UHGV virus genome: UHGV-0205693
Direction: 5' to 3' (one strand)
Origin: a virus
Length of the DNA stretch: 36,794 nucleotides
A program made the position numbers and the translations under genes. The first letter of the stretch is position 1. Each line of letters opens with the position of its first letter. Below are positions 1 through 36,794 of the stretch, one piece after another. Under the pieces are notes generated by a model, which saw only the letters and a list, made by a program, of their open reading frames with translations, was not told where the DNA came from and ran no database searches.

Positions 1-3
1 ATC

Positions 4-279
4 ATGTCATTTACTAAAAATATTGAATTAACCTTTAATAAAACAGCCGCGAACGGGATGGCGCTGCCTTCTGAGACACAGACAATCGAAACTCATTTTG
101 TGGTGCGAAATGTCATTATCTCTGATGCGGAGGGTATTTCACAGGCAGACCTGTTCAGCAGTTTTGATGGGGTATCCTGGCAGTTTTACGGCTCGTATGA
201 GTTTGCACCCGATTACACGTCCGGTATCGGTATGTTGGAACAGGCAGAAACACAGATCCAGACACTGATGGACGCATAG
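4..279 (+). CDS. hypothetical protein (91 aa) just after the tail fiber gene. If the genome is circular, the window end supplies a GGAGG-n4-ATG ribosome-binding site.
   Basis: ORF in the six-frame track. The window end ...ctggaggg joined to the window start atcATG gives a canonical SD spacing. Codon usage looks coding. Confidence 0.4.
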   Translation: MSFTKNIELTFNKTAANGMALPSETQTIETHFVVRNVIISDAEGISQADLFSSFDGVSWQFYGSYEFAPDYTSGIGMLEQAETQIQTLMDA

Positions 280-416
280 AGAGACATATAGAGAGCATTA
301 TATTTTGGGGTTCTGAATAAAAATCGTTAAACGTATAGAGTGTTAGGGAGATCAATAAATTATTCACTCGAAACTCAAGGTGAAGCAGCCACTCAACTAT
401 AGAGTGGCTGAGTAAG

Positions 417-1322
417 TTAACCTCTGTATGGTATTTTTGATATTTCGATGGGTGTGTGCATTATACATCTTTCTTCTATCATGCTTTTTATGGTGTGCGC
501 GTTCAAAGTAGAGTATTGGTGCGGTCCGATTACTATTCTCTTTATCGGTATGAGTATGTTTGTAATCATTGTGTTATCATTTAGTTCTGGTTTGTTACCA
601 ATTGAAATGTATGGAATTAAGTAGTCCCCATTGCTTCTGTATCTTACCAGTGTTCTATTTGTTATGGTGTGGTAAATTACTCTGTATTCATTTTCTTCTT
701 TAAAACCTTCATCCTTAATTAATGGTGTTATATTATATAATTCCGTTCTGGTTATCCCTTGCCTTGCCAGATCGTTTCTTAAAAATATATCAATATTGGA
801 TAGGTATGACTCTTTCTCTCTAACTAAATACTCTGCTGCATTAATTGCGGAATCATGATTGATGTATTGGACTGGGCCGTAATATATGTCAAACTGACGA
901 TTATAGAACTCACCTTCTTTAATATATTGGTTTTGTTGTGAGGATAAAAAGTTAATTAAGCGGTCATGTTCAAAAACAATGCATATCCCTTGTTGGCTTT
1001 TACTGTATCCTCGCCATTGGCTTAGTAAATCAGACCCATCCACTATCTCACCATTAGGTTTTACTGATGATAGAAAACAAGTGACATAAATATCATGTGC
1101 GGAAGTGCCATCTAATACTTTTATTTGTTTTTTTATTTCCTCTATCCACTCGTGGTTTATATTTGAATTATTTTTTACATGATCAATCGATTGCTCTAAG
1201 ATGTGTATTCCATGAGATAGTTCGCTGCTGTCATTTAAATGTTTAATGTTTGTTGCCCAGAGGGCATTTTCGTTTATGATTCCTAAAAAACCATCGAGCG
1301 TCGTATAGTGATATAATTCCAT
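417..1322 (-). CDS. DUF2971-like protein, 301 aa, in an AT-rich moron
   Basis: The N-terminus MELYHYTTLDGFLGIINENALWATNIKHLNDSSE matches my recollection of the DUF2971 N-terminal signature (YhYt...L....lw.s....lNDp.E). GC content is much lower than in flanking phage genes. Confidence 0.5.
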   Translation of the reverse strand: MELYHYTTLDGFLGIINENALWATNIKHLNDSSELSHGIHILEQSIDHVKNNSNINHEWIEEIKKQIKVLDGTSAHDIYVTCFLSSVKPNGEIVDGSDLLSQWRGYSKSQQGICIVFEHDRLINFLSSQQNQYIKEGEFYNRQFDIYYGPVQYINHDSAINAAEYLVREKESYLSNIDIFLRNDLARQGITRTELYNITPLIKDEGFKEENEYRVIYHTITNRTLVRYRSNGDYLIPYISIGNKPELNDNTMITNILIPIKRIVIGPHQYSTLNAHTIKSMIEERCIMHTPIEISKIPYRG

Positions 1323-1514: not shown

Positions 1515-1745
1515 ATGCGAATGAACAACCTTTCAGACGTAGCGGCGGGGGCCTCCTACGTCACTTCAATAGGCAGCGGCGGTTACTGGCTGCTGCAACT
1601 CCTCGATAAAGTCAGCCCGAGCCAGTGGGCGGCGATCGGCGTTCTTGCCAGTATCGTTTTCGGGCTGCTGACCTACCTCACCAACCTTTATTTCAAAATC
1701 AAAGAAGACCGGCGGAAGGCGCGCGACTATGAGCAACAAAGCTAA
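1515..1745 (+). CDS. S: class II pinholin, phage 21 S21-like, with an M-R-M dual-start motif
   Basis: [52 protein letters not shown] closely resembles S21. Two transmembrane segments. MRM at the N-terminus is typical of a holin/antiholin pair. Confidence 0.85.
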
Positions 1746-2265
1746 GCTCAGCGCTGCGATGCTGGCGCTCATTGCAGCAGGTGCATCAGCGCCGGTAATA
1801 ATGGACCAGTTTCTGACGGAGAAAGAAGGGAGCAGCCTCACCGCCTATAAAGACGGTTCTGGAATCTGGACCATTTGCCGCGGCGCCACGCGCGTGGACG
1901 GTAAGCCTGTAATTCAGGGTATGCGGCTGACGCAGGCCAAATGCGGCCAGGTAAACGCTATCGAGCGCGATAAGGCGCTGGCGTGGGTACAAAAGAACGT
2001 TCATGTTCCTCTTACCCCGCCGCAGGCCGTAGGCATTGCCTCGTTCTGCCCGTACAACATCGGGCCGGGTAAGTGCTTCCCCTCGACGTTCTACCGCAAG
2101 CTGAACGCCGGCGACCGCAAAGGGGCATGCGCGGAGATCCGCCGGTGGGTATTCGACGGCGGCCGGGATTGCCGGTTAACCAAAGGACAGAAAAACGGCT
2201 GTTACGGGCAGGTTGACCGCCGCGATCAGGAAAGTGCGCTGACGTGCTGGGGGCTGTACGAATGA
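1729..2265 (+). CDS. R: SAR endolysin (signal-anchor-release lysozyme, T4-lysozyme-like GH24)
   Basis: An N-terminal weakly hydrophobic SAR segment [17 protein letters not shown] is followed by the E-8aa-D-5aa-T catalytic triad ([16 protein letters not shown]). It overlaps the holin end, as in phage 21. Confidence 0.85.
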
Positions 2266-2621
2266 AAGGAAAAACCAAACTGGTGATTGTGGGGGGAGTG
2301 CTGGCGGTATGCGCCGGCATTTTCTGTGCGGGGTATCTGAAAGGTTGGTACGCGCATTCTGAGCAAGTGAACAGCCAGGCTAAAGCCAGACTGCAAAAAC
2401 AGGAAAAAGCGGTAGCAGAAGGCGAGCAGAAGGCGGCGACGGCGAACGCCGACGCCAAAGTGATTTACCGTACCGTTTATCGTGATGTGGTGAAATATGT
2501 CAATGACCCGAATCATACTAAGTGCCAGTTTGATCCTGCTGCTGTGCAGCTGCGCCAACGAGCAATCGACGCGGCCAACGCCATCCCCGGATTTGATGAA
2601 CCGACCGTGCAAGCTAAGTAA
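2262..2621 (+). CDS. Rz: i-spanin Rz
   Basis: ATG at 2262 overlaps the endolysin stop (ATGA). The N-terminal TM segment KLVIVGGVLAVCAGIFCAGYL is followed by a coiled-coil periplasmic domain. Position after the endolysin fits. Confidence 0.75.
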   Translation: MKGKTKLVIVGGVLAVCAGIFCAGYLKGWYAHSEQVNSQAKARLQKQEKAVAEGEQKAATANADAKVIYRTVYRDVVKYVNDPNHTKCQFDPAAVQLRQRAIDAANAIPGFDEPTVQAK

Positions 2622-2736
2622 CGCTGGCGTAGATAGCGACGCTGATCTGCTGGCAGATACACAATCAGCGGAGTGCGTGCGGGAGCTGCGTACCAATATC
2701 TACCGCTGGCAATCGTGGTATCGTGCGACTGAATAA
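2497..2736 (+). CDS. Rz1: o-spanin Rz1 (lipoprotein), +1 frame, overlapping and extending past Rz
   Basis: Signal peptide with an LLLCSC lipobox-like motif and a Pro-rich mature region. Starts inside Rz and ends 115 nt after it (overlapped architecture). Confidence 0.6.
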   Translation: MSMTRIILSASLILLLCSCANEQSTRPTPSPDLMNRPCKLSNAGVDSDADLLADTQSAECVRELRTNIYRWQSWYRATE

Positions 2737-2875
2737 ATATTGAATCTGGGGTATTATAAGCGTCAGAAGATAGTCTAAAACAGTGCTGTAACTTATTGTT
2801 TTCTCGCTACTAGATTATTGGTGTATGTTCGGATTATTTTCATATCTCATTGATATTTAAAATAATCACCACCAA

Positions 2876-2931
2876 TTTAAAATCCCTCGGCGTTCGCGCT
2901 GTGCGGGTTCAAGTCCCGCTCCGGGTACCAT
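2876..2931 (+). other. attP core: 3' part of tRNA-Leu(UAA), from the anticodon loop to CCA. Not a complete tRNA.
   Basis: ATTTAAAATCCCTCGGCGTTCGCGCTGTGCGGGTTCAAGTCCCGCTCCGGGTACCA matches the 3' end of enterobacterial leuZ-type tRNA-Leu(UAA). Upstream sequence is AT-rich non-tRNA DNA. The integrase is adjacent. Confidence 0.8.
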
Positions 2932-2964
2932 TGGGATAAAAGCAGAATAATCAAAGCAATAAGC

Positions 2965-2996
2965 AGTGTCGTGAAACCACCTACGGGTGGTTTTTT
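2965..2996 (+). terminator. rho-independent terminator (AAACCACC-tacg-GGTGGTTT followed by T7), probably the tRNA-associated terminator carried in attP
   Basis: Perfect 8-bp stem and a T-run, seen directly in the sequence. Confidence 0.6.
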
Positions 2997-3061
2997 TGTA
3001 TCTGAAACTCTCCTTTCCGAAGATGCGTCCGAAGATGATTTTTCCGCGAACGCATAGCGAT

Positions 3062-4078
3062 TCATTTTTTCTGACCGCCGACCACCGGCACGATTTTAGT
3101 TTTCCTGTCGTAAATTGCCGTCTGTCTCGAATTTTTATGACCTGAAATCGCCTGTTTCTCCTCGAGGCTTCCTTCCAAATCAGAAACACCTTTCGCCTTC
3201 AGATCATGGAAAGTGAAATCTATCTGCAGGTGCGGGTTCTTTTCCTGCGCTGCGATTTTGGCGTCGCGCCAGCGTGAATTAAAACCGTCGCGGGTGTATT
3301 TGCTGCCGCTGGTCTGGTGAATGACAAACAGGCTACGGATACCCGGCTTTAACGGCAGGGAGCGGGCGAGGGCGACAGCGGCGCGCAGGCGTGGCGACCA
3401 TGCTTTGATTTGCTTCACGCCTGTTTTCCCCTGGCGTATAAAGATCCCGGTTTCCCGTATCTGGTCTTCAGTCAAAGCCAGCACATCGCTTTGTCTGGCC
3501 AGACACAAATAAGCGATTTCCATGGTGGCGCGAACCACGTCCGGAGCAACGTCGTAAACCGCTTTGTATTCTTCGTCGGTGATGTAACGCTCCCTGGCCG
3601 TCTCTTTGAACTTCTTAACGCCCTGACAGGGATTATGCTGAACGTAACCGCGCTCATAACCCCAACGGAATACCCGCGAAAGAAAACTCTTTTCCCGGTT
3701 AGCCTGCGTTTTACTGGCCATGCCACGCTGATCCATATAGCGCCGGATGTGTTCTGGTTTAATTTTATCCGGGTTAACCTTCCCGAATACCGGCAACACT
3801 TTGCCTGCGTATTTCGTGTAGTCTTTTCGGGTTTCTGCCGCTAAATCCTGCCAGTCAGGGGAAGACATGAATTGATCGGCCAGAGCCTGAAACGTCTTGC
3901 GCTCGACTTCTTCTCCCATGGCTTTTTCATATGCCAGCCATACAGCTGATTGAGGCTCGGAGAGCGCACATAGCCTGATAGCCTTGTTATCTTTATTCCT
4001 GAATTCATACGCCGCCTTGCCGCGATACACGCGGGGCGGCATCCAGTTATCAGCGGGGTTCTTACGCTTTCCGGCCAT
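3062..4078 (-). CDS. int: tyrosine site-specific integrase
   Basis: 338 aa with a lambda-integrase-like organisation, a C-terminal catalytic region (HDLK...H...R...Y context), and adjacency to the tRNA-derived att core. Confidence 0.85.
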   Translation of the reverse strand: MAGKRKNPADNWMPPRVYRGKAAYEFRNKDNKAIRLCALSEPQSAVWLAYEKAMGEEVERKTFQALADQFMSSPDWQDLAAETRKDYTKYAGKVLPVFGKVNPDKIKPEHIRRYMDQRGMASKTQANREKSFLSRVFRWGYERGYVQHNPCQGVKKFKETARERYITDEEYKAVYDVAPDVVRATMEIAYLCLARQSDVLALTEDQIRETGIFIRQGKTGVKQIKAWSPRLRAAVALARSLPLKPGIRSLFVIHQTSGSKYTRDGFNSRWRDAKIAAQEKNPHLQIDFTFHDLKAKGVSDLEGSLEEKQAISGHKNSRQTAIYDRKTKIVPVVGGQKK

Positions 4079-4307
4079 TAAAGATAGCTCCGAAGTCTGG
4101 TTCTTCCTCCCGCACCGTTTCTTCCTGCTGGTTGCGGTATTTAATCGGGTTCAGGAAATGGCCCCACGTCGTTTTAGGATGGCCGTCTGCCCTTTCCATG
4201 AAAAAGACTCCGGCCCGGCGTAGCGCTTCACACTGCCGCGATTTAAGCGGTGTCCCCGTCAGTTCGATCATTTCCTCTCTGGTGATGATGTCGTGATCGT
4301 GTCTCAT
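4062..4307 (-). CDS. xis: excisionase-like / small DNA-binding protein
   Basis: 81 aa, overlaps the int start by 17 nt, and is preceded by the recurrent GAGGAAAGACCATG start context. The position is typical for xis. The sequence call itself is weak. Confidence 0.45.
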   Translation of the reverse strand: MRHDHDIITREEMIELTGTPLKSRQCEALRRAGVFFMERADGHPKTTWGHFLNPIKYRNQQEETVREEEPDFGAIFNGRKA

Positions 4308-4463
4308 GGTCTTTCCTCAGCATGCCGGCTATCGCGTTGTCTGCCGTATCGCAAGCGCGTTGGATATCGGACTGGGTCAGAGTCCTCTTTCTAACGCTGG
4401 CTGATAGCCTGCCAATTTTGATATCGAAATCTGAAAGTAAAAGTGTGCCTGGTTGCCAACGTA

Positions 4464-4500
4464 GCATTGTGATCTCCGGTTCATAGGTAGATCACAATGC
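4464..4500. repeat. perfect 12-bp inverted repeat GCATTGTGATCT / AGATCACAATGC with a 13-bp spacer
   Basis: Seen directly. Intergenic, between the small ORF ending at 4517 and xis. Confidence 0.8.
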
Positions 4501-4516
4501 TAACGACAGTTGCGGG

Positions 4517-4702
4517 TTATTTCTGATTAGGCTTAATCAGGTTTGGTTTATTCAGGAACGCGCCATTTTCGCGGGTGATTTTGGCACTGCGCGGAAAATG
4601 CATAGCCAGTTCGCAACGCGCGCAGGCTTCGATTATCCCGTTAGTACCGTCCGGAAAAACGACGTGAAGCGCGTCGCCTCGTTTCAGTGTGAGTTTCAGC
4701 AT
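4517..4702 (-). CDS. small hypothetical protein (about 61 aa, MLKLTLKRGD...), translationally coupled to the upstream gene
   Basis: ATG is 1 nt after the stop of the Gp157-like gene. CxxC motif present. Confidence 0.35.
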   Translation of the reverse strand: MLKLTLKRGDALHVVFPDGTNGIIEACARCELAMHFPRSAKITRENGAFLNKPNLIKPNQK

Positions 4703-4703
4703 A

Positions 4704-5270
4704 TCAGCGCACCTGCAGTGAACGTTCGCCAATCTCAAGGTGAGCGCCCGGCACTGGGTTTAACAGTTCTTCCGGTATCTCTCCGCCGTCAGCGCTAATC
4801 TGGGCCGCTGCTGCCTGTGCTGATTCAATCGCTTCCTTGATGGCTTTCTTGTCCGGAGTGACTAACGTCTGAACTGTCACTAATTCATCCGGCAGTAATT
4901 CATCATTATCGATCACGACGTTTATAGCTCCCTTACGTGCGGTAAAGGTATTTTTGGCGGTTTTAACCGTATCCTGACCGGCGGCCAGTAGGCACTGGAG
5001 AACATACTTCTTCAGGTTCGTGATCTTGCCTTCGAATGATTTTTTGCGGGCGGCGAGGCGTTTGGCCTCTTCATCACAGGTTTTTGCCAGACCTTCCAGA
5101 TTGCGAACATGCACAAACACCGCATCCAGTTTGTCGCCGAGTTGCAACTTAAGTCCTTCCATTGTGTCGGCAATCATTTCCGGAGACAGACCAGAGCCGT
5201 CTTCATTTTCCAGAAGCGCCTGGAGTTTTGACATATCGGCAGCGATAGCAATTGCAGTAGTAGAAGTCAT
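4704..5270 (-). CDS. Sipho_Gp157-family protein, commonly partnered with Sak/Erf recombinases
   Basis: 188 aa with an acidic N-terminus (LQALLENEDGS). The motifs AKRLAARKKSFEGKITNLKKYVL and VVIDNDELLPDELV match the Gp157 pattern. ATGA overlap with the upstream recombinase gene. Confidence 0.55.
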   Translation of the reverse strand: MTSTTAIAIAADMSKLQALLENEDGSGLSPEMIADTMEGLKLQLGDKLDAVFVHVRNLEGLAKTCDEEAKRLAARKKSFEGKITNLKKYVLQCLLAAGQDTVKTAKNTFTARKGAINVVIDNDELLPDELVTVQTLVTPDKKAIKEAIESAQAAAAQISADGGEIPEELLNPVPGAHLEIGERSLQVR

Positions 5271-7411
5271 TGTGCTTTCTCCTCGGCTTTATTCAGTTCT
5301 TTAATGCGGCCATCCTTAATGGTGATGAGTCGGCGGAGTCTGCCAGACAGATAGCGTTCATGCTGCGTATCGCCGTTGGCCTGGGCGGCTTTAATGTGTA
5401 CATCGATCTCACGTGCAATAGGGGAAAACACGCCATTGATTTCGTTCACCGTCACTCCATGTGCCAGGGTATTAGCAACGCGGCTTAATTTGTCGTCAAA
5501 CTCCTGGCGAAGCCGTGCTGCATCTTCGGCTGATTCGCTGGCGTTCTTCAGGTCAAACTCGGCCTTATTCTTCTGGCGGTACTCCAGATTGTCGTAAAGC
5601 CCCATAAAGATATCGCCGCTGAATCCTAGGCCGGATAACGCCTTTTTAGTGGCATCGGTAAGGGATTTTTTAGCGGCTTCCCCATCGCAGATCGGGCCAT
5701 ATTTGCTGCCGTAAATGTAGGGTGTGCAGCCGTAGGCGTATTCTTCTCCGCGAACATCGTTTACCAGATACCAAAGGCGAATTTTCATTACGTGATGTTT
5801 TTCAGTGAGGAAACCGCCATTACCATCTGAGATCAGTTCCCATGTATTGTTACCGTCACTTCCTTTTACAGTCCGTGTAATTGGCGCTCCATCGTCAAAG
5901 CGTTCTTCCAGTATATCGACGCCCCAGCCGCTGCCTTTCAGGCCGAACTCACGGGTAGCCAGCATCGTAAGATACGTGCCGTTGATTGAGGTGCCGCCGC
6001 CGTTTTGCGTGAATGCTTTGGTAAAGCGCTCATCGGTTTTGAAGACACGTTTCCACAGCGCCAGGTTGTCTTGTTCGGTGCCAGGATTACCGACTGATCG
6101 CACGACTTCTTCAGCGCTAGGCATGGTTTCTTTCTGGCTTATGTGCTCTACCAACTGCTCCACATCATCAGCAATTCTTTGCGCTTTGACGCTCAGTTTT
6201 TCCTCTGGCTCGCTGGCGATGTAATTGTCTGACGCATAAACGCCATAGCCCATATCGTTGAGCGTCTCACGCGCCTGTTTGGCCTGGGTATCGGTTACCA
6301 CCGGCTGTAGTGCTTCCGCTTTTTCGACCACGTTTGAGGCGGTATTTTGCGTTGCCTCTGGTTGTTTAACGGATCCTGTCTCGGTTTCTTCAAAGCGGCC
6401 GTTTGCCTCCAGCCATGAATCAATGTGGCGGCGTAGGCTGTCAGGGAAATGGTAGGTATCTTTTGCCGGGACGTTCTGCACTACGCCAAAAATACTGTCT
6501 CGGTCATATTTGAGGATGTGCTCCGTGGTGCGAAGCGCCATTGACCAACGTTTAAAATCTTCGCGCTCGTCTGCAATGATTTTCTCAGCATCGCGAAGGT
6601 TGCCTGATAATACTGGCGCGTCGGGAGAAATAGGGAGTAGGGCGACAGCGATCTCCTGATCCAGTGTTGCATAGGTATGTTTATAACCACGTTTGGGCGC
6701 GATTTTAACGTTGAAATCAGTGCTGGCGGTGCCGAGTGAGGAATTTTGGCCTGGTACCATTTCTTCACGTTTACCGGGATTCTCAAGCCAGCGTTTTACA
6801 AATTGAGAAATAGCCGCTTTGCCCGGAGTCTGGTTTTCAAAATGGGAGAAGATGCCCTGGATCAGATTGTTCAGACCTTCCACGTGCATATGTTTAACTG
6901 GCTCGTTGTTGTGCAGGGCGCAAAGCACATTGAAATTAAAACGGTCATCCTCTTCCATGGTTTCGTCGTGGTTATCCAGATCATCAAGATAATCTACAAC
7001 CTGCGAATAGAGCTGGCCGTTCATCTCTAATTTGCTGAAGAGTAATACAGCTGCAAAACGCTCCCTAGGGGATACCGTCATCAGATCGATAACTTCATCG
7101 CCTGTCGGCAGCTCGGTGACGTCACCATTCCGGATGTTAGCCACCCATTTTTCACCGTCAAAGGTATTTTCTCGGGCGAACTGCTCATCGAACTGGCCAA
7201 CGGTCGGCAGCGGCTGGCCCTCTTCGTGTTCCCACAGCTTAGGTTTGAAATAGTTATCACCATTTGCCGGGTAAGATTCCCAGAGTTTGCCGGTGATAAT
7301 GCTTTCGGCGACTTTCTTGTTTGGTGCTTCGACGGCGATCGCCAGCTGCACGGCGCCGCAGTCTTTGATTGCCGATTTTTTTGGCTCGAATAAGCCGTTG
7401 TAGATGGTCAT
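5267..7411 (-). CDS. 714-aa protein with a C-terminal Erf/Rad52-like single-strand annealing domain fused to an N-terminal region of about 450 aa of unknown function
   Basis: C-terminal segment TDATKKALSGLGFSGDIFMG and upstream YAYGCTPYIYGSKYG resemble the Erf/Sak/Rad52 SSAP signature (DA..RAL..LGfG). Sits in the early-left operon next to Gp157. Confidence 0.45.
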   Translation of the reverse strand: MTIYNGLFEPKKSAIKDCGAVQLAIAVEAPNKKVAESIITGKLWESYPANGDNYFKPKLWEHEEGQPLPTVGQFDEQFARENTFDGEKWVANIRNGDVTELPTGDEVIDLMTVSPRERFAAVLLFSKLEMNGQLYSQVVDYLDDLDNHDETMEEDDRFNFNVLCALHNNEPVKHMHVEGLNNLIQGIFSHFENQTPGKAAISQFVKRWLENPGKREEMVPGQNSSLGTASTDFNVKIAPKRGYKHTYATLDQEIAVALLPISPDAPVLSGNLRDAEKIIADEREDFKRWSMALRTTEHILKYDRDSIFGVVQNVPAKDTYHFPDSLRRHIDSWLEANGRFEETETGSVKQPEATQNTASNVVEKAEALQPVVTDTQAKQARETLNDMGYGVYASDNYIASEPEEKLSVKAQRIADDVEQLVEHISQKETMPSAEEVVRSVGNPGTEQDNLALWKRVFKTDERFTKAFTQNGGGTSINGTYLTMLATREFGLKGSGWGVDILEERFDDGAPITRTVKGSDGNNTWELISDGNGGFLTEKHHVMKIRLWYLVNDVRGEEYAYGCTPYIYGSKYGPICDGEAAKKSLTDATKKALSGLGFSGDIFMGLYDNLEYRQKNKAEFDLKNASESAEDAARLRQEFDDKLSRVANTLAHGVTVNEINGVFSPIAREIDVHIKAAQANGDTQHERYLSGRLRRLITIKDGRIKELNKAEEKAQ

Positions 7412-7443
7412 TGGTCTTTCCTCGTTTGTAACTAATTCGCTGG

Positions 7444-7728
7444 TTAGGCGTCTTGTTTAATTTCAGGGAGCAGTCCAGCGATCACGCGTTCTGCCGTTTT
7501 TTTTGCTTCTTCCAACTGCTCTAGTTCGCGTTCGAGATGAACCTTTTGGCTTTCTGCCAGTTCTTTAATTTCTGATGAATCGACTTTGAGATAGCTCTCG
7601 CCGTTTCTACCTTCCGCTAAAATCCCGGAGGAGCGGCATTCGTTACTGCAAATATTGATAATTCTGTTTGCGCGATCTAAGCGGTCTTTAATTTCGCGAA
7701 TTCTTTCAAGCAATTTTCTAATATCCAT
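7444..7728 (-). CDS. hypothetical coiled-coil protein (94 aa)
   Basis: ORF preceded by the GAGGAAAGACCATG start cassette. Confidence 0.5.
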   Translation of the reverse strand: MDIRKLLERIREIKDRLDRANRIINICSNECRSSGILAEGRNGESYLKVDSSEIKELAESQKVHLERELEQLEEAKKTAERVIAGLLPEIKQDA

Positions 7729-7772
7729 GGTCTTTCCTCTTGGTTACAGGCGCAGGTCACGCGCCCAGTTAA

Positions 7773-8431: not shown

Positions 8432-8487
8432 TGTCAGAACTGTTTCTGAACAACTGCCGCGTGGTTAGTGCCTCGTTGATGGGAGGA

Positions 8488-8516
8488 ATATTAATAATGA
8501 TAATATTATCGGTCAA
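8488..8516 (-). promoter_or_regulatory. pL candidate (TTGACC, 17 nt, TAATAT on the minus strand) within an AT-rich OL region containing AATATTA-type palindromes (ATAATATTAT; AAAATATT..AATATTTT)
   Basis: Hexamers and spacing were read from the reverse complement. The same AATATTA palindrome family appears in OR. Confidence 0.5.
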
Positions 8517-9170: not shown

Positions 9171-9182
9171 GAGGCCCTAACG

Positions 9183-29186: not shown

Positions 29187-32080
29187 TGCCTATCTACCCG
29201 CAATCCGATGTTCCGCCGAGTGTAATGGACAATGCTCTTCAGGCGCCAACTGGTTTTGATGTATCTCTGCCTGAAGGAACTAACCCGGAGCCACAGCAGC
29301 AACAACCGTCTGTATGGGATGCCGCTTTTCGTCAGAATAACCTGCTCGCCGGGATGTTCCGCCCGGCTAAACAATTTGAGCCGGCGGAGGGGTATAACCC
29401 TTATTCTGATAAAAACGAACTAAAGGGGTACGAACAATGGGGATCCGCCTTTGCGGATTCACAATCCCCAGAGGAAACAGCCTGGATTAAAAACCGGATA
29501 GACGATGAAAACGAAGACCGCCGGGTGCTGTCTGAAGCAGGTGCCGAAGGAACTTTAGCCAGTATAGCCGCCGGGGTTATCGACCCCGTCACAGTCGCAT
29601 CGATGTTTATCCCCGGTGCGCAGGGAAGCCTGGCTGCTCGTATTGGTTCTCAGGTTGCTATTGGCGCCGCCGGTACCGCGCTTAGCGAGGTTGCGCTCAA
29701 TAACGAGCAGTATACCAGAACAGCAAGGGAGAGCGCCGCACACATCACAGCCGGCGCACTTCTCAGCGGTGTATTTGCTACCGCTGGCGCGATGATCACC
29801 CCGTCGGTAAGAAACGCGGCCACCCGTGAAGTGGCGGAGGCGCTCGATAATATGAACGCCTCGCCAACGATTAACAACGCAGCCGATGCCCTGGAGGATA
29901 CTTTACCGAACGGTGGCAGCGTCGGTGCTATGCGTATTCGCGAAGCTACACTGGAAGATCTTACGCCAGTGTCTGGCGGCCCGCTCGGAAAGCTGGCTAA
30001 AAAAGCCGGTAGCTATCTGACGCCGATCACCCGCCTGATGGAATCCCCATCAAAAGAAGCGCGCCGGACAGCGCTGGAGCTGGCAGAGAATAACTTCACG
30101 CTGGAAGGCAACCTGCGCGGTATTGAAACGCCGGTTGCAGCTGAGACGCGCGTACGTGGCTGGCGCCGCGAAGAGGCGGCCGTCGTTACTGCGAATAAGC
30201 AGGCATACACCCAGTACAAAGCCGAAGGCGGTGATCTGGGTTATACGGCCTTCCGTGAACAGGTTGGCGAGGCGCTGCGCAACGGCGACGTGCACGTCAA
30301 TGCGAAAGTGCAGGAAGCGGCGCAGGCAATGCGTACAGTCATTAACCGCGTGAAGACAGCACAGCAGGAACTGGGCTTACTTCCGCCGGATGCCGAACTG
30401 AAAGCGATGGGACAGACCAGCTATTTCCCACGCGTGTACAAGGTAGGGAAAATCGTTAGCGAGCGCGATAAATTCCGCAACATGCTGGTTGACTGGTGGT
30501 CACGCGGTGAGAAAACCATGTCCCGCGAAGATGCCGAAATCGCCGCCGATACCACTATCAACCGTATCGTTGGGGCCAAAATTCCGCAGGAGTTTGCCAA
30601 CGTCTTTATGGTGAAAGCGCCGGGCAGCACTAAATCGCGTACGTTGAGCGTTCCCGATCGCCTGATGAAAGATTATCTGGAGAGCGACGCTAACTACGTC
30701 CTGCAGCGTCATATCCGCGAAGCCTCGGCAGAAATCGAATTAACCCGCACCTTTGGCAACAAGTCGCTGGATTCGCAGCTCGCCGCCATCCAGGACGAGT
30801 ACGACGCGCTAATGCGTTTACGCCCGGCGGAACAGGAAAAGCTGGCGAAAGCACGTGAAGCCGACCTGCGCGATATTCTGGCGCTTCGCGATCGCCTCGT
30901 CGGTACCTACGGTATGCCGGATGACCCATCATCATTTTTCGTCCGCGCCGGTGCTTTCCTGCGTAGCGCCAACTTTGTAACGAAACTCGGCGGCATGACG
31001 GTATCCGCTATCCCGGATCTGGCGCGCGGCATGATGGTTAACGGCTTCAGCAACACCATGCGTGGATATGGCGCACTGATCACCCGCTCGCCGGCTTACC
31101 TCGCCAACCGGGCGGAGCAGAAGAAAATGGCCGTGGGGCTTGAAACCATACTGCATACCCGCGCGCGTACGATGGGGGATCTGGTCGATAGCTCTTCACG
31201 TACGACAGCTGCAGAAGCTGGCATGGAGCGTATTACCGATGTGTTCGGAAAGCTGACCATGATGGGCCACTTTGACGATATGAACAAATCGGTGAATGGC
31301 ATGATCACGTCCGACGGTATTCTGTCCGGCGCGTTCCCTGCGAAGCGCCTGGCAAAACTCGGCATCAATGAGAAGATGGCCGAACGCATCCAGCGAGAAT
31401 TTCAGAAGCACGGCGAAGTTATTCAGGGCTGGCATATCGGCAATTTCGAAAAATGGGATGACCAGTACGCCGCTGGCCTGCTGCAATCTGCTGTGCTGAA
31501 GGATGTAAACAATACCGTTATCACGCCGGGGATTGGTGATACGCCGCTATGGGCCAGTACCCCGTTGGGGAAAACCGTATTCCAGTTTAAGTCTTTTGCC
31601 ACGGCGTCATATAACCGCGCGACGCTCGGCGGCCTGCAGGAAGGTACCGCGCAGTTCTATTACGGTACCGCCTTCCAGATTGGTCTGGGCTCTTTGACCT
31701 ATGCGCTTAAGCAGGCGGCTAACGGTCGGGAAGTTGATTTGACGCCGCAGAAGATGGTTCTCGAGGGCATAGACCGTTCTGGTATCCTCGGCCCGCTGAT
31801 GGAATATAACAACATGGCGGAAAAGGCATCCGGAGGGATGATAGGGTTAGGGCCATTACTCGGCACCGGTACGCAGTCCCGGTACGCCAGCCGCGGCTTT
31901 ATCGGTTCGGCACTGGGGCCAACCTTCGGCCTACTGGATACGGTTACCGATGTGACCGCCGGCGTGCTGAATGGTGACGCTGGCGACCGTGTGCTGCATA
32001 GCGTGCGTACGTTGTTACCAGGTAATAATCTGTTCTGGATCGCACCACTAATTAACCAGGTAGACCCAGGGATGCGTTAA
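29186..32080 (+). CDS. large internal virion / ejection protein (gp16-like), 964 aa
   Basis: Size and position after the SLT-containing protein. ATGA-type coupling. Confidence 0.55.
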   Translation: MPIYPQSDVPPSVMDNALQAPTGFDVSLPEGTNPEPQQQQPSVWDAAFRQNNLLAGMFRPAKQFEPAEGYNPYSDKNELKGYEQWGSAFADSQSPEETAWIKNRIDDENEDRRVLSEAGAEGTLASIAAGVIDPVTVASMFIPGAQGSLAARIGSQVAIGAAGTALSEVALNNEQYTRTARESAAHITAGALLSGVFATAGAMITPSVRNAATREVAEALDNMNASPTINNAADALEDTLPNGGSVGAMRIREATLEDLTPVSGGPLGKLAKKAGSYLTPITRLMESPSKEARRTALELAENNFTLEGNLRGIETPVAAETRVRGWRREEAAVVTANKQAYTQYKAEGGDLGYTAFREQVGEALRNGDVHVNAKVQEAAQAMRTVINRVKTAQQELGLLPPDAELKAMGQTSYFPRVYKVGKIVSERDKFRNMLVDWWSRGEKTMSREDAEIAADTTINRIVGAKIPQEFANVFMVKAPGSTKSRTLSVPDRLMKDYLESDANYVLQRHIREASAEIELTRTFGNKSLDSQLAAIQDEYDALMRLRPAEQEKLAKAREADLRDILALRDRLVGTYGMPDDPSSFFVRAGAFLRSANFVTKLGGMTVSAIPDLARGMMVNGFSNTMRGYGALITRSPAYLANRAEQKKMAVGLETILHTRARTMGDLVDSSSRTTAAEAGMERITDVFGKLTMMGHFDDMNKSVNGMITSDGILSGAFPAKRLAKLGINEKMAERIQREFQKHGEVIQGWHIGNFEKWDDQYAAGLLQSAVLKDVNNTVITPGIGDTPLWASTPLGKTVFQFKSFATASYNRATLGGLQEGTAQFYYGTAFQIGLGSLTYALKQAANGREVDLTPQKMVLEGIDRSGILGPLMEYNNMAEKASGGMIGLGPLLGTGTQSRYASRGFIGSALGPTFGLLDTVTDVTAGVLNGDAGDRVLHSVRTLLPGNNLFWIAPLINQVDPGMR

Positions 32081-32120
32081 CGGTTAGGATATGGAGGATA
32101 AACAATAAGATGGGGATGGA

Positions 32121-32615
32121 TTGATGAGGAATATCACTAAATTTATAGGTGCATGTCTATGTGCCTTATATCTTTCTGGTTGCGCGTCTACAAAATCGGT
32201 TGATGTGGTTTCAACAGAAAAAATAGATGCACCAAAAGTAATTGCGATCTCTGGTAGCAAAGGTTTGTGGGTTAAAGAAATTCAAAAACGATTGCGTAAT
32301 AAAGGATTTACAATTAAACGCTCTGTTAGCCAACAGACCATTATAGAAAAGGAGTCGGTTGATAGGACGGCTGTCTATAGGGATGCTTCAGCGAGATATG
32401 TTTTAGTTCTTGATGGCTATGCCCCTAGCGATTCTTTTCAGCGTTGCGTAGGCGGTGGTGGTTATAAATTCGATTATATAAATGCTGAGTTAGTTGATTT
32501 GGCAAAAAATGAGACAATTTTCTCTTATTCAAACTCCGGTTATTCAGAGGGCTGTCCGTTAGGTGGGACAATATTTACAGATATTGAAAACCTAATGGTT
32601 AACTCTTGGCGATAA
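32121..32615 (+). CDS. AT-rich moron lipoprotein (164 aa, LSGC lipobox)
   Basis: Signal peptide MMRNITKFIGACLCALYLSGCAS with a canonical lipobox. GC content far below the neighbours. Confidence 0.65.
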   Translation: MMRNITKFIGACLCALYLSGCASTKSVDVVSTEKIDAPKVIAISGSKGLWVKEIQKRLRNKGFTIKRSVSQQTIIEKESVDRTAVYRDASARYVLVLDGYAPSDSFQRCVGGGGYKFDYINAELVDLAKNETIFSYSNSGYSEGCPLGGTIFTDIENLMVNSWR

Positions 32616-32647
32616 TTAATAGTTAAGGCGGATGTAGCTCAACAATA

Positions 32648-32662
32648 GTCAGGATTCCGACC
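32648..32662. repeat. GTCAGGATTCCGACC hairpin-repeat copy 3 (33 nt after the lipoprotein moron)
   Basis: Sixteen bp identical to copy 1. Confidence 0.7.
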
Positions 32663-32680
32663 TCAAGCCCGGCACATCAT

Positions 32681-32710
32681 AGCCCTATGGATAACCACGG
32701 GGCTTTTTTA
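32681..32710 (+). terminator. rho-independent terminator (AGCCC...GGGCT followed by TTTTTT) after the lipoprotein moron
   Basis: Stem with an internal TGG/CCA helix and a T6 run. Confidence 0.45.
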
Positions 32711-33057
32711 TGCATTCAGATTACAAAACTCGCCTTACTGCTCTTAGCGATAAGCTCACCGATGTAGTTCTGGAAGAAGCCGATCCGGACAACTGGCCGG
32801 GGGCAGGAAAGGAAATCACAAAGCACACCAAACAGGAACGCGGCGATCGGTACTGGCATAAGAAGAATGCGGCCGCCTCGCTAACCCTGCTGGTAAAAGT
32901 CCATTCACTTATTGGTATGCACACTCGCGGCGGTACGCCAAAAACCGGCGGAGAAGATCCGGACGATGAAGCGTTCCTGTTAGGTCAGCAGGTAGCAGCT
33001 GCTGAGCGTAAAGCGCTGGAAGTCATCGAGAGGCTGCAACACAAAGGCAAAAAATGA
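32710..33057 (+). CDS. terminase small subunit (T7 gp18-like)
   Basis: 115 aa directly upstream of, and overlapping, the large terminase. Weak resemblance to gp18. Confidence 0.45.
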   Translation: MHSDYKTRLTALSDKLTDVVLEEADPDNWPGAGKEITKHTKQERGDRYWHKKNAAASLTLLVKVHSLIGMHTRGGTPKTGGEDPDDEAFLLGQQVAAAERKALEVIERLQHKGKK

Positions 33058-34664
33058 TTTCGTTCCTGGCCTTCTTTTTGATGTGGGCGGAACGGATGAA
33101 TTGGGATGTGCCGGACTGCCACTATAAAGCCTGCCACTGGCTGGAGCATCGCGGAAACCTCGCGGTACTTCGCTGTTTTCGTGGCTTTGGTAAATCAACT
33201 ATCCTGGGCGTTTATAACGCCTGGCGGTATTACTGCGATCGCCAGTACCGTATTCTGCATCAGTCGGAATCCGATACAACCGCCAGAAAGACCAGCCGCG
33301 ATACGCAAAACGTTCTGCGTAATCACCCACTGACGAAAGGTATGTTGCCGGACGGCATCGGTACCATCGAGCAATGGTGGGTAAACGGCGCGCTGGATAT
33401 GCGTAACGCCAGCATGTTCGCAAAAGGCATTCTGTCGAACGTTACCGGCGCCCGTGCCAACGAGTGCCAGAATGATGACGTGGAGGTGCCCGGCAATATC
33501 CAGACTCCGGAGGCTCGCGAAAAACTGCGCTATCGCCTAAGCGAGCAGACGCATATTTTGATACCCGGAGGCCGAAAATTGTTTATCGGTACGCCGCATA
33601 CCCACGATAGCCTTTACGACGAGAAAGAAGCAGAGGGCGCCGATTGCCTAACGATAAAGCTATTCGATAAAGAGCACCGCGTCGAAGCGAAGAAGGCAAC
33701 CAAAAAACGATACCGGATACCGTTCCGCCCGGAATATGTTTTCGTGGGGATCCACAAGGCCGCCAGGCTACTGATCGAGGGTACTGATTACCGATTGACG
33801 GAAGACGGCGTAGAGTTCGCGGCGCCGCCCGAAACGGTCGTGGATTTTTACGCCGGCTGCGCGTGGCCGGGCCGTTTCGATCATGATGAATTACTGCTGC
33901 GTCGTAAAGAATGCCGCACAGTCAACGAATGGGATAGCCAGTACCAGCTGCACAGTAAACCGGTTGGAGAAGTTCGCCTCGACCCTGACCGCATCCGCGA
34001 ATACAAGGTACAGCCTGAAATCCGCTACGCGAACCGCTCTTGTTCGATGTGGCTGGGCCAGACGCAAATCGTCGGTGCTGTCGCCTGGTGGGATGTAGCC
34101 ACCGGCAAAGTTAAGGCCGACGCCTCGGCATTCTCCCTGATTTTCACCGACGCGCGCGGGCATCTGTACTGGCATGTTTGCCAGGGATTAACTGGCGAGC
34201 TGGCAGAGTTTGACGACAACGACAAAATCACCGGCGGCCAGGTGATGCAGATTAAAGAACTGGTGTTGAAGTACCAGATCCCGCTGGTATGCGTTGAGGT
34301 CAACGGCCCCGGCAGCTTTGCCGGGAAGTTGCTGATTCAGGCGCTGAAGGGGACCGGCTGCGGCGTACGAGAAGAGTTCAGCGTCACCAACAAACAAAAG
34401 CGCATCCTCGATGCATTCGAAGCGCCGCTGTCGTCGCGGTTCCTGTGGGCACATACCGACGTGCTCGATGGCCCGATGTACGACCAGATGCGAGACTTTA
34501 ACCCGGCGCTGACTAATCAGCCCGATGACTTTATTGATTCCGGTTCCGGCGCTATCAGCTCAACACCAGTGCGCATTGGTAAATTGGTCGGGATTCCGAC
34601 CGCACAGGCGCGGGAACATTGGCAACCAAACGATGGCGATCACATGGTCGCCGTAGATTACTAG
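33054..34664 (+). CDS. terminase large subunit (T7 gp19-like)
   Basis: LRCFRGFGKSTILGVYNAWRY...ILHQSESDTTARKTS parallels T7 gp19 [21 protein letters not shown]...ILIVSASKERADANS (Walker A). Confidence 0.75.
   Translation: MISFLAFFLMWAERMNWDVPDCHYKACHWLEHRGNLAVLRCFRGFGKSTILGVYNAWRYYCDRQYRILHQSESDTTARKTSRDTQNVLRNHPLTKGMLPDGIGTIEQWWVNGALDMRNASMFAKGILSNVTGARANECQNDDVEVPGNIQTPEAREKLRYRLSEQTHILIPGGRKLFIGTPHTHDSLYDEKEAEGADCLTIKLFDKEHRVEAKKATKKRYRIPFRPEYVFVGIHKAARLLIEGTDYRLTEDGVEFAAPPETVVDFYAGCAWPGRFDHDELLLRRKECRTVNEWDSQYQLHSKPVGEVRLDPDRIREYKVQPEIRYANRSCSMWLGQTQIVGAVAWWDVATGKVKADASAFSLIFTDARGHLYWHVCQGLTGELAEFDDNDKITGGQVMQIKELVLKYQIPLVCVEVNGPGSFAGKLLIQALKGTGCGVREEFSVTNKQKRILDAFEAPLSSRFLWAHTDVLDGPMYDQMRDFNPALTNQPDDFIDSGSGAISSTPVRIGKLVGIPTAQAREHWQPNDGDHMVAVDY
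34587..34602. repeat. GGTCGGGATTCCGACC hairpin-repeat copy 4 (inside the 3' end of the large terminase gene, encoding KLVGIPTA)
   Basis: TTGGTCGGGATTCCGACCGC is identical to copy 2 over 20 bp. Confidence 0.7.
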
Positions 34665-34680
34665 CCGCCGGAGTTCCCTT

Positions 34681-36780
34681 ATGTCGGTACCGAACCAGAC
34701 ACCCTATAACATCTATACGGCTAACGGCCTGACAACCGTTTTTACGTACCAGTTCTATATCATTAGTGCCAGCGATCTGCAGGTAAGCATAAACGGAAAT
34801 ATTGTTACCAGTGGGTATTCCGTCGCGGGGGTTGGAAATAAAGATGGTGGTGATATCTCCTTTCTGACGCCGCCGGCGAATGGCGCTGTCGTTATGTTAC
34901 AGCGTGTTGTTCCGACGTTCCGGTTAACGGATTATCAGGATAATGGGGACTTACTGGCGGATACCATTAATAAGGACTTTGACCGTATTTGGATGGCTAT
35001 CCAACGAGCATTCCTCGAACTCGGACTGGCAATAACTCGCCCACTGTACGGTGGCCCATATAATGCGCAGGGATACCGAATAGCTAATCTTGCTGATCCG
35101 GTGGACAATCAAGACGCTGCAACGAAAAAGTTTGTAGTCCAAACTGAACAAGTTAATTTCTCACGTACGCTACGTGTTCCCGAAAGCGAGGTTGCAATGC
35201 TCTATCCGGTAACTCCGCGTTCTAATATGCTTCTGGGATTTAATGACCAGGGAAACCCGGTACCGATCGCCGGACAGACTCAAACTGCAGATCTGGCTAT
35301 TAAGCTGGCTTCGAAGGACGGCGCTGGCTTAGTAGCTACTGAAACAGGAAGAACGGTAGAGGCTTCTATTCGTGCGGCGTCTGGCTCATCACAGGCTCTG
35401 TTTCCAAAGTTTATTAATAAATTAACAGCTTATCGGCATGGCATTACCGGCTATCAGGATTTGTTCAGAGCTTACGGTTTCGGTAGTTCAGTGCAAGTGG
35501 GTGCAACACTTCCAGATCCTGCAACGCAAGCCCCTATCGCTAAGTTTTTCGAATACTTAAATAAAACGGTAAACCGTGGGGGGATTTATCCTCTTTCTTT
35601 CGAAAACAGGGGGGTTAATGGTTCGTCGATAAATAACTTCATTGTAAATCAGTGGCCTGGCGTCGTCGCAGAAGGCGTATACCCAGATATCGCGCTCTTT
35701 GTATATGGTATGAATGATTTCCCAACGGCAAACTATAATGCCGGGCAAACGTTCAATGAAAATGGATTTAAGCAGCGTCTTAGAACCGCGATTAATTTAG
35801 TCAGGGAGGCTGGCGGTGATGTTGTTTTGACAACCACACCGCATCCAAATATAGGTGAGTACAGCTGGAGCATGCCGCCATCTGTTAATCAGGTGTGGCC
35901 ATCATTTTCTCCACTTCCTGTTTCCGATGAGGACATTATCCCTTCAGCGGCAGAGTCAAACGTCACGTTTGAATGGAATGGTGTAAACATACAGGCAGGT
36001 GTTCGCTTCCTGCGTGGAAACGATGCCATCAGGCAAATCGCGGTAGAGATGGGATGTGTGCTGATTGATGTCGAAAAATACTGGTTTGATGCTGTAGCTA
36101 AATATGGCGAAACGGCATTATTCAATCGGACGCCTGAAATACAGACTGTTCACCCCAATTTGCTTGGGCATCAGCAATCGTACTGGCTTGCCTTTGAAGA
36201 ATTTTTTGCGAACATGGATAAGAACGGCTGGATACCGCCCGTAGCGAACAGTTATGACGTTTTCAGTGTCGGCGGGACAGCATTAAATCCAAACCCAAAA
36301 ACTGCTGACATTGACCTCCAATCTAATGGCATTCGGGCATGGGCTTATGGGTTGCGCGATAAATATGCGAGACTAATTTACGCGTCTGACCTGCTCGGAA
36401 AAATATCAAAATGGTCTTACACCTCACAATCCCCAACCTCTTCCGCTCCGGGTTATAGCCTGGAATGGACAGAATACCATTCCAGAACAGGTGGGCTTTA
36501 TACAACGGGTGACATCATTCCAGTTGCTATCCCCAACAGAACGTCGATGAAGGTTTTTATTGATGTGTGGACTTCTGCGCAAACCGGGTGGGCGCAGACA
36601 ATAGAGGTTATTGCTGTAAACCGTGAAGGGGTGGTGTCGTATACCATCGTTGGCGTTCATGATAACACGCCGAATGGTAACAGATTATTTACGGTAACAG
36701 TCGGTTCAGGCGTATTGAATATCAATGTGCTACAGGTTAACTCATCTGTTAAATACCACATCAGCGGTTTTAATTCGTAA
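34681..36780 (+). CDS. tail fiber/tailspike: T7 gp17-like N-terminal adaptor domain plus a C-terminal SGNH/GDSL-esterase-like domain
   Basis: N-terminus (…GYRIANLADPVDNQDAATKKFV) parallels T7 gp17 (…GRRIVNLANAVDDRDAVPFGQL). C-terminal blocks YGFGSS, NGSSINN, FVYGMNDF (GxND) and HPNLLGH resemble SGNH hydrolase blocks I, II, III and V. Confidence 0.6.
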   Translation: MSVPNQTPYNIYTANGLTTVFTYQFYIISASDLQVSINGNIVTSGYSVAGVGNKDGGDISFLTPPANGAVVMLQRVVPTFRLTDYQDNGDLLADTINKDFDRIWMAIQRAFLELGLAITRPLYGGPYNAQGYRIANLADPVDNQDAATKKFVVQTEQVNFSRTLRVPESEVAMLYPVTPRSNMLLGFNDQGNPVPIAGQTQTADLAIKLASKDGAGLVATETGRTVEASIRAASGSSQALFPKFINKLTAYRHGITGYQDLFRAYGFGSSVQVGATLPDPATQAPIAKFFEYLNKTVNRGGIYPLSFENRGVNGSSINNFIVNQWPGVVAEGVYPDIALFVYGMNDFPTANYNAGQTFNENGFKQRLRTAINLVREAGGDVVLTTTPHPNIGEYSWSMPPSVNQVWPSFSPLPVSDEDIIPSAAESNVTFEWNGVNIQAGVRFLRGNDAIRQIAVEMGCVLIDVEKYWFDAVAKYGETALFNRTPEIQTVHPNLLGHQQSYWLAFEEFFANMDKNGWIPPVANSYDVFSVGGTALNPNPKTADIDLQSNGIRAWAYGLRDKYARLIYASDLLGKISKWSYTSQSPTSSAPGYSLEWTEYHSRTGGLYTTGDIIPVAIPNRTSMKVFIDVWTSAQTGWAQTIEVIAVNREGVVSYTIVGVHDNTPNGNRLFTVTVGSGVLNINVLQVNSSVKYHISGFNS

Positions 36781-36794
36781 TGTAATCTGGAGGG

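Follow-up and report, generated by a model that had tools for sequence, protein, structure and literature searches.

The viral genome UHGV-0205693 (36,794 bp; the whole of this stretch is called the window below) carries virion genes related to those of bacteriophage T7 beside control and replication genes of the lambdoid kind, and the question it raises is whether such a combination represents a complete, genuine phage and, if so, where it stands relative to T7 and which RNA polymerase (RNAP) serves it. The answer we favour, with a probability of roughly 0.88, is that the window is the complete, circularly permuted genome of a 36.8-kb temperate podovirus of the Klebsiella oxytoca complex and Escherichia coli, present in its excised form, mosaic in composition and devoid of an RNAP of its own. 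The window is 95% coding, and its largest non-coding gap, 325 nt, is the attachment (att) region. Leftward genes run from 8519 to the integrase gene at 3062, and rightward genes from 9183 to the window end and then from 4 to 2736. Positions 3062-16983 form the early module; the late module extends from 17107 across the join between the window ends to 2736. GC content is ~52% overall, with low-GC islands at 1-1000 (37%) and 21001-22000 (41%). Slots for cargo, which are low in GC or variable, lie at 4-1322, 20951-21835, 32124-32615 and in the C-terminus of the tailspike.

Completeness follows from integrated copies of the same phage. The window from 30798 to 36794, continued from 1 to 2999, forms a single gapless match of 8996 bp (99.94% identity) to one integrated prophage, and the same joined block aligns at 99.88-99.99% identity in four loci (L006-L009). 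The join is intact in all four, the last 30 nt of the window running directly into its first 30 nt, which proves the circular permutation. The distance from the tailspike stop codon to the ATG of open reading frame (ORF) 4-279 is 17 nt, made up of 14 nt from the window end and 3 nt from its start, and this spacer is identical in L006-L009; thus, the join that the earlier note proposed is proven. The exact product of ORF 4-279 is, moreover, found on many public contigs. The circle has been cut open arbitrarily, in the gap that separates the tailspike gene from its neighbour downstream, and a search for an exact overlap between the two window ends, as expected of a terminal repeat, found none.

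To the left of the 135-bp attP core the window aligns with attR of a prophage in E. coli 23GD11002 (L001), and to the right of the core with attL of the same prophage; therefore, the window is the excised form and not an excerpt of a prophage. The core opens with the 3'-terminal 56 nt of tRNA-Leu(UAA) (2875-2930), which reach from its anticodon loop to CCA, and goes on through the terminator downstream of leuZ. Consistently, an ARAGORN scan of the window returned no complete tRNA, attP carrying a partial one only, and detected an intact tRNA-Leu(taa) at attL of L001, in agreement with the integration at tRNA-Leu(UAA) that had been proposed from the window alone. The integrase would recombine the attP core with the 3' end of leuZ (tRNA-Leu UAA), thereby rebuilding the tRNA. 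An intact attP together with a join that is read through in prophages likewise sustains the initial view of a complete temperate phage.

L006-L009 represent the same phage, at least 99.9% identical over the 4.2 to 9 kb that each of them covers, integrated at leuZ beside yecA. Three of the hosts (L006, L007 and L009) are members of the K. oxytoca complex, to judge from the YecA and DHDPS encoded in the flanks, which are exact proteins of that complex, and the flank of L008 (GCA_021468605.1) is 100% identical to E. coli. In L008, ~120 bp are gone inside Rz/Rz1 (L008 8437-8486; window 2450-2572), the att region is just 97% identical, and identity elsewhere is 99.99%. This prophage may be decaying in a secondary host.

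The virion module (18139-36780) is collinear with that of T7. However, the likeness is remote: the portal protein matches PDB 8CK0 at 1e-53 and the T7 portal 6R21 at 1e-8, and 8CK0 and, for the tail proteins, 8CK1 are the closest structures. The description of these genes as T7/SP6-type therefore holds for protein families and gene order and not for closeness. Among isolated phages, the nearest portal and capsid proteins are those of the temperate podoviruses YeP4-6 and not of T7 or SP6, and Autographiviridae are absent from the best matches. YeP4-6 are mitomycin-induced podoviruses of Yersinia enterocolitica whose particles have been seen by electron microscopy (PMC6548840); they lack an RNAP, and their portal and capsid proteins are 82% and 83% identical, respectively, to those of the window at the amino acid level. 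The next-best matches are temperate podoviruses of Acinetobacter and Alcaligenes, followed by Pelagibacter HTVC010P-type and Vibrio phages. The remote match to T7 set against 82-83% identity to YeP4-6 places the phage in an RNAP-less lineage rather than among T7/SP6 derivatives that have lost the polymerase. Thus, the virion module is T7-like only at the level of the supergroup, and its lineage is that of YeP4-6, Piluca and hundreds of prophages.

None of the T7-RNAP motifs A, B and C occurs in any of the six frames of the window, and the only two ORFs longer than 720 amino acids encode internal virion proteins, in accord with the early observation that no T7-type RNAP is present. Furthermore, RNAP motif A was found in none of >100 related loci, including the complete genomes L001, L002 and L004. 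T7-type DNA polymerase and primase-helicase are not among the replication genes of the window, which has an O-like initiator and DnaB instead. Since RNAP is missing from the window and from >100 related loci, we infer that the host RNAP must transcribe the genome; it would transcribe everything along one 30-kb co-directional gene array.

The early and late modules have separate affinities. Over 4304-16973 the early module shares 86.5% nucleotide identity (megablast) with phage BUCT709 (L005, OM816835.1), the match ending at 16973, and BUCT709 carries a different virion module. BUCT709, named as a Stenotrophomonas phage with an 'S' label, has an enterobacterial-type early module and also podovirus-like genes, including a portal and a 904-amino-acid SLT protein, so that both its host and its siphovirus label look questionable. 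The late module is common to YeP4-6 and to a dusA-integrated E. coli prophage (L004, strain B379), whose early genes encode DNA polymerase A, VapE primase, SNF2 helicase and a LexA-family repressor; the window has no PolA, VapE primase or SNF2 gene. A search for related loci by portal protein yielded 29 from species-representative genomes and >237 from IMG/VR, and the pairing of modules was counted among those relatives whose portals are 75% or more identical and for which 8 kb or more of sequence upstream is available (n=34). The early module is lambdoid in 16 of these, of the PolA/VapE type in 16 and neither in 2. Portal identity does not track the module type, as portals 98.8% and 98.0% identical go with PolA and lambdoid modules, respectively, and module exchange is therefore recent and recurrent. 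The mosaic is thus not unusual and reflects routine module shuffling, and the explicit breakpoints show that two unrelated early modules combine with one virion module at about equal frequency. Independent instances of this early-late joint are found in L001, L010, L041-43 and other lambdoid-type relatives. Compared with L001 (91% identical), differences are limited to five stretches, namely, 13520-15807, 20838-21855, 32074-32645, the tailspike C-terminus through ORF 4-279 to the DUF2971 gene, and the att-proximal region. Megablast of the late half against phage records gave no match; relatives come to light only in protein comparisons or among bacterial genomes and in IMG/VR.

The early region is lambdoid in layout: the repressor and cro genes of its switch diverge, cII-like and O-type replication genes come next, and the origin is located within O, where three iterons at 23-nt spacing (10480-10554) are found. 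Integrase, Cro, the O-like initiator and DnaB were all assigned by PHROG matches as the earlier note had it, whereas its 'cI' is a short DicA-like helix-turn-helix (HTH) protein: residues 105-151 give a partial NF007257 DicA match, that is, a DicA-like C-terminus, and Pfam and NCBIfam scans detected no Peptidase_S24 self-cleavage domain in this repressor. Antiterminator families of the N/Q type had no match, either in PHROGs searches of the listed ORFs or in Pfam/NCBIfam searches of subsets, with the small unassigned ORFs 7444-7728, 8214-8519 and 15292-15630 remaining. NCBIfam and Pfam likewise gave no family for the proteins of 112, 98, 149 and 222 amino acids. A repressor without S24 and the lack of N/Q-type antiterminator matches suggest that the switch is Rac/Qin/Gifsy-like rather than lambda-like. 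Ahead of the NinB-like gene, 15976-16072 contains a promoter-like sequence, TTATCA-18-TGcTATAAT, and a 68-nt leader; this segment is strongly kept in lambdoid-type relatives, including those of Serratia, and the adjoining sequence is not.

How could such a prophage respond to DNA damage? The putative SOS induction unit contains an intrinsic, bidirectional terminator, a perfect LexA box (~0.004 expected by chance) and an ORF of 63 amino acids with a GTG start and a strong ribosome-binding site. The LexA box is kept in three related early modules (L010, L005 and L013). In L001, the region upstream of the 63-amino-acid ORF is unrelated sequence beside an ISEc20 (IS110-family) insertion. Gifsy prophages have LexA-controlled antirepressors and short non-cleaved repressors, and the layout of terminator, LexA box and small ORF is the same as in the Gifsy antirepressor loci (PMC3121763). 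This Gifsy-like layout together with the S24-less repressor suggests, by analogy, antirepressor-mediated SOS induction in the Gifsy style, although the 63-amino-acid ORF has no detected homology to any characterized antirepressor. The short, non-cleavable repressor would keep the prophage silent, and DNA damage would take LexA off 15773-15792, so that the candidate antirepressor would be made and the repressor inactivated.

The head of the late module is marked by an alternating-CG element with the 18-nt consensus TCGCG-YRYRYR-CGCG-TTT, which corresponds to window positions 17108-17125 and is single-copy in the window. It lies upstream of the portal gene, at 0.85-3.8 kb, in 79 of 96 related loci and is strand-specific (85 matches on the + strand versus 3 on the - strand); loci with the element at the same position include L001, L002, L004, L010-L118 and L119. 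Among them are Pseudomonas, Burkholderia and Acinetobacter prophages with portals just 43-60% identical, and in the Acinetobacter/Alcaligenes relatives (43-47% portal identity) the element is kept in otherwise unalignable flanks. In most loci a small XRE-type HTH gene follows directly, and of the 67 loci with enough upstream sequence, 63 have an HTH homolog 1-3 kb ahead of the portal gene, whatever their early module. The HTH proteins are 76-100% identical in lambdoid-type relatives versus about 50-60% in PolA/VapE-type relatives, and because their sequence types track the early module, the recombination breakpoint seems to lie just downstream of the HTH gene. The AlphaFold model of the window protein (predicted local distance difference test, pLDDT, 75) shows weak likeness to the P22 c2 N-terminal domain, to restriction-modification C-controller proteins and to CapH.

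For the CG element, Rfam scans had no match, either over the entire window at the gathering threshold or over 16900-17300 at permissive settings. An extended structured RNA is unlikely, as folding of the surroundings in five loci revealed no common larger structure, with z-scores near 0 in four of the five and only a CG hairpin of 3-5 bp recurring. A coding explanation was rejected, because reading frames are not kept between loci. Record ends of Piluca and vB_EcoM_APEC were uninformative as physical ends: the former starts at the small terminase gene and has the element mid-record, and the latter starts right after the tail-tube genes and has no match to it. The small HTH protein and the CG element may control entry into late expression. 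It is possible, although we put it forward only tentatively, that the two together exert control in a widespread branch of the T7 supergroup that lacks RNAP, either as a dedicated late-transcription switch or, for the element, as the terminase recognition site or genome terminus. If true, such a late switch would do for the host RNAP what the phage polymerase does in T7.

How secure is the complete temperate podovirus when set beside other explanations? The portal-to-terminase order collinear with T7 and the T7-family proteins (PF12236; PF22530 together with 4BIJ; PF03906) would also be expected of a recent Autographiviridae (T7/SP6-like) derivative that had lost its RNAP and gained lambdoid genes. 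Such a descent is very improbable, given that the E-value of the portal against T7 structures is 1e-8 when portal and capsid are 82% and 83% identical to those of the RNAP-less YeP4-6, that the top matches beyond these (Acinetobacter, Alcaligenes, Pelagibacter HTVC010P-type and Vibrio) are all RNAP-less podoviruses, and that none of the >100 related loci has the RNAP motif. An artefact, in the form of a chimeric assembly or of a prophage excerpt whose ends were joined arbitrarily, is hardly credible: the window does begin mid-operon and has no terminal repeat, but its early-late joint recurs independently in L001, L010, L041-43 and other lambdoid-type relatives, its end runs into its start without a break in four separate assemblies, which come from two host genera, and its attP is the exact recombinant of attL and attR. 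Improbable too, if less so, is an element that has lost the ability to form particles, whether a cryptic or defective remnant of a prophage or a satellite. In L008, from E. coli, part of Rz is indeed missing, and the phage-record collection holds no nucleotide-level match to the virion half; however, all expected functions are intact ORFs in a window that is 95% coding and has the excised attP form, copies at least 99.9% identical in two genera imply recent horizontal spread, and the relatives YeP4-6 are inducible and form podovirus particles (PMC6548840).

Several points nevertheless weigh against the complete, inducible podovirus or against parts of the picture drawn here. Induction, particle morphology and physical DNA ends are extrapolated from relatives, the phage being known here from sequence alone, and the Rz deletion of L008 suggests that some copies are decaying. 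The candidate antirepressor role of the 63-amino-acid ORF is assigned from architecture only, phrog_340 having no assigned role. Foldseek matches of the HTH protein (E 0.03-0.1) are weak and fit an activator or a repressor alike. Moreover, as its sequence type tracks the early module, this protein may belong functionally to the early region. Collectively, the evidence still favours a complete, excised temperate podovirus, whose features are collected in Table 1.

Table 1. Annotated features of the window, in order of position, with the matches or observations on which each assignment is based
Feature	Position	Strand	Evidence and remarks
ORF, 91 amino acids	4-279	+	weak phrog_7836 as sole family match; directly after tailspike gene in L006-L009
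DUF2971 protein, low GC (37%)	417-1322	-	PF11185, 1.9e-11
Phage-21-type class II holin (pinholin)	1515-1745	+	PF04971 'P21 holin S', 9.1e-32; phrog_9876
Predicted signal-anchor-release (SAR)-type endolysin, T4-lysozyme family	1729-2265	+	PF00959, 3.6e-24
Rz-like inner-membrane spanin	2262-2621	+	phrog_2536, 5e-43; N-terminal transmembrane segment
Rz1-like outer-membrane lipoprotein spanin	2497-2736	+	phrog_5672, 1.3e-17
attP core	2875-3009	.	aligns with attL as well as attR of the E. coli prophage L001 (NZ_CM180093.1)
Tyrosine integrase	3062-4078	-	phrog_1, 1e-52
Excisionase (DUF4224)	4062-4307	-	phrog_1266, 1.7e-33; L001 annotation
Gp157/Gam-like protein	4704-5270	-	PF05565, 1.2e-34
Exonuclease, 714 amino acids	5267-7411	-	phrog_2489, E=0
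Prophage repressor, XRE-type HTH, 151 amino acids	8621-9076	-	HTH_3 and HTH_31 only
Cro-like gene	9183-9416	+	phrog_35 or phrog_163; divergent from repressor
cII/YdaT-like gene	9479-9925	+	PF06254, 1e-21
O-like initiator	10170-11162	+	phrog_1347, phrog_428, phrog_9773
DnaB-type helicase	11159-12565	+	phrog_19, 2.5e-112
DNA methyltransferase	13655-14245	+	phrog_359, 1e-113
DNA methyltransferase	14425-15258	+	phrog_56, 2e-72
Putative SOS induction unit	15654-16004	+	terminator, LexA box, small ORF
Intrinsic, bidirectional terminator	15654-15677		downstream of replication and methylase genes
Perfect LexA box TACTGTGAATTTATACAGTA	15773-15792		overlaps promoter-like sequence
ORF, 63 amino acids, GTG start, strong ribosome-binding site	15813-16004	+	phrog_340; candidate antirepressor
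NinB/Orf-like recombination mediator	16073-16669	+	phrog_319
Ref-like HNH nuclease	16681-16983	+	phrog_1588; last early-module part in common with BUCT709
Alternating-CG element CTCGCGCACGCGCGCGTTT	17107-17125	+	13 nt ahead of HTH gene start codon
XRE-family HTH protein, 98 amino acids	17139-17435	+	phrog_16553; candidate late-gene regulator
Small conserved protein	17463-17903	+	phrog_17476 or phrog_9015; kept in YeP4, L004
Small conserved protein	17914-18135	+	ahead of portal gene; kept in YeP4, L004
Portal, T7 gp8 family	18139-19761	+	PF12236, 3.2e-120
Bbp19-like small protein	19761-19994	+	phrog_5977 or phrog_3742; L001 annotation
Scaffold	19981-20829	+	phrog_5977 or phrog_3742; L001 annotation
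Coiled-coil cargo, 294 amino acids, GC 41%	20951-21835	+	between scaffold and capsid genes
Major capsid protein	22025-22936	+	PF19821, 4e-68; phrog_3437; start codon inferred
Tail adaptor/tubular protein A	22996-23559	+	phrog_394; PDB 8CK1 'Connector Protein', 1e-11
Nozzle/tubular protein B	23561-25549	+	phrog_376; PDB 8CK1 'Tail Nozzle', 3e-98
GNAT acetyltransferase	25552-26001	+	phrog_1249, 6e-48
Three internal virion (ejection) proteins	26004-32080	+	phrog_418, phrog_1044, phrog_342
ORF, 163 amino acids, variable slot	32124-32615	+	no family match
Small terminase subunit	32710-33057	+	phrog_9277 or phrog_38
Large terminase subunit	33054-34664	+	PF22530; T7 gp19 structure 4BIJ, 1e-16
Tailspike	34681-36780	+	PF03906, 6e-12 (T7 gp17-type N-terminal anchor); PF13472, 4e-10 (SGNH/GDSL esterase)

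Within the virion module, the three ejection proteins have 155, 904 and 964 amino acids, the second carrying an SLT transglycosylase domain (PF01464), and the T7-family terminase would fill the capsids. The GNAT gene, located between the nozzle gene and the first of the ejection-protein genes, is kept in 77 related loci, including YeP4, Piluca and E. coli prophages. The tailspike is identical to a K. oxytoca protein (WP_224260997.1) and is common with L001 only at the N-terminus, to 35003 (approximately the first 107 residues), which indicates, at the level of sequence, that the receptor-binding domain has probably been exchanged. The SGNH-esterase body (35003-36780; L003 6001-7040) shares ~78% nucleotide identity with tailspikes from unrelated prophages of E. 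coli (H29-H35).

The lysis cassette is of the phage-21 type, as was recognized from the start. The PF04971 score of the pinholin is well above the curated cut-off, and the protein has a possible dual start, Met1-Arg2-Met3. The endolysin has an Ala/Gly/Ser-rich, weakly hydrophobic N-terminus of 25 residues before the PF00959 domain, which contains an E-8-D-5-T motif; this N-terminus is SAR-like, and signal-anchor-release is predicted. Rz1 has a signal peptide, the lipobox LLLCSC and a Pro-rich mature part, overlaps Rz and runs beyond the Rz stop codon. The pinholin would trigger release of the SAR endolysin, which together with the spanins would lead to cell lysis. The cassette had been thought to sit apart from the late operon, but on the circle it forms the 3' end of that operon, after the tailspike gene; the apparent separation is an artefact of the permutation, because the circle was opened between the tailspike and lysis genes. 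Consistently, in L001, L004, YeP4 and L006-L009 the lysis cassette comes directly after the tail-fibre gene, with att or the integrase gene next in line.

Cargo genes differ among relatives. A 1.4-kb insert between tailspike and holin genes comprises ORF 4-279 and, on the opposite strand, the DUF2971 gene, which is not at this position in L001 or L004; L001 carries a distant DUF2971 gene elsewhere, in its early region. PADLOC could call no defence system among the cargo genes, returning a weak PDC-S31 hit for the DUF2971 protein and coiled-coil noise for the 294-amino-acid protein; the DUF2971 gene may be defence or exclusion cargo. The gene for the 294-amino-acid protein, preceded by a terminator-like hairpin (20847-20874), is not found in L001, L004 or YeP4, and its sole counterpart among the fetched loci, 24% identical, occupies the same site in L054; no family or defence system could be assigned to the protein. 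In the slot of the 163-amino-acid ORF, L001 has another gene, and L006-L008 are identical to the window.

The phage is a further member of a large, already sampled lineage: near-identical prophages are public, and its combination of modules is common. Its value is that of a clean worked example of a common and little-described kind of Klebsiella/E. coli prophage, namely, a temperate podovirus with a particle distantly related to that of T7 and without an RNAP. As such, it bears on the debate about the temperate ancestry of T7-like phages and on prophage annotation, which can readily take elements of this kind for incomplete ones. Two leads stand out as the most useful, namely, the predicted SOS induction by an antirepressor and the deeply conserved CG-rich element heading the late module.

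Among named systems, T7 and SP6 have their late genes in the order seen in the window phage, and their portal, terminase and tail-fibre N-terminal anchor are homologous to its own; they also have ejection proteins including a transglycosylase, and in SP6-like phages the tailspike gene likewise follows the terminase genes. In contrast to T7 and SP6, the window phage is temperate, lacks a single-subunit RNAP and T7-type replication genes, and has a GNAT gene within the virion module. Prophages of the Rac/Qin/Gifsy type resemble it in the repressor/Cro/YdaT-like switch, the O-like initiator with internal iterons and NinB, and Gifsy additionally in the LexA box ahead of a small GTG-start ORF downstream of the replication genes. 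Unlike in the lambdoids, a DnaB helicase takes the place of lambda P, and no related virion module occurs in lambda, P22 or BUCT709. With phage 21 it shares an S21-family pinholin (PF04971), an endolysin with an N-terminal SAR-like segment and an Rz/Rz1 pair. In phage 21, however, Rz1 lies wholly inside Rz, unlike the overhanging Rz1 of the window phage.

Closer relatives combine the same virion type with varying early regions. Alcaligenes phage Piluca (MZ326864) and Escherichia phage vB_EcoM_APEC (MT664721) are isolates with this virion type and a lambda-style early region, which encodes integrase, repressor, Cro, DnaA-like and DnaB-like replication proteins, Bet and exonuclease in Piluca, and replication protein O, a replicative helicase and exonuclease in vB_EcoM_APEC. 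They differ from the window phage in early genes and hosts, and their portal and capsid proteins are 41-46% and 40-47% identical to its own. YeP4, YeP5 and YeP6 (MK733262-4) and L004 have the same late order as the window: small proteins, portal to terminase, tail fibre, holin, lysozyme, Rz, integrase. Like the window phage they are temperate and without RNAP, and podovirus morphology has been shown for YeP4-6; the prophage of E. coli B379 (L004) matches 81% of the late half at 79.6% nucleotide identity. They differ in having PolA, VapE, SNF2 and a repressor of the LexA family where the window phage has O/DnaB, NinB and one that is DicA-like, and in using another integrase and dusA as attachment site, in contrast to its tRNA-Leu(UAA). 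The prophage of E. coli 23GD11002 (L001) matches 83% of the late half at 91.2% nucleotide identity and has the same architecture and attachment site; it differs in the tailspike C-terminus, in lacking ORF 4-279 and the 294-amino-acid gene, and in an early-region ISEc20 (IS110-family) with a DUF2971 gene. L006-L009 and the 23GD11002 prophage represent the integrated state of this kind of phage, and the window its attP form.

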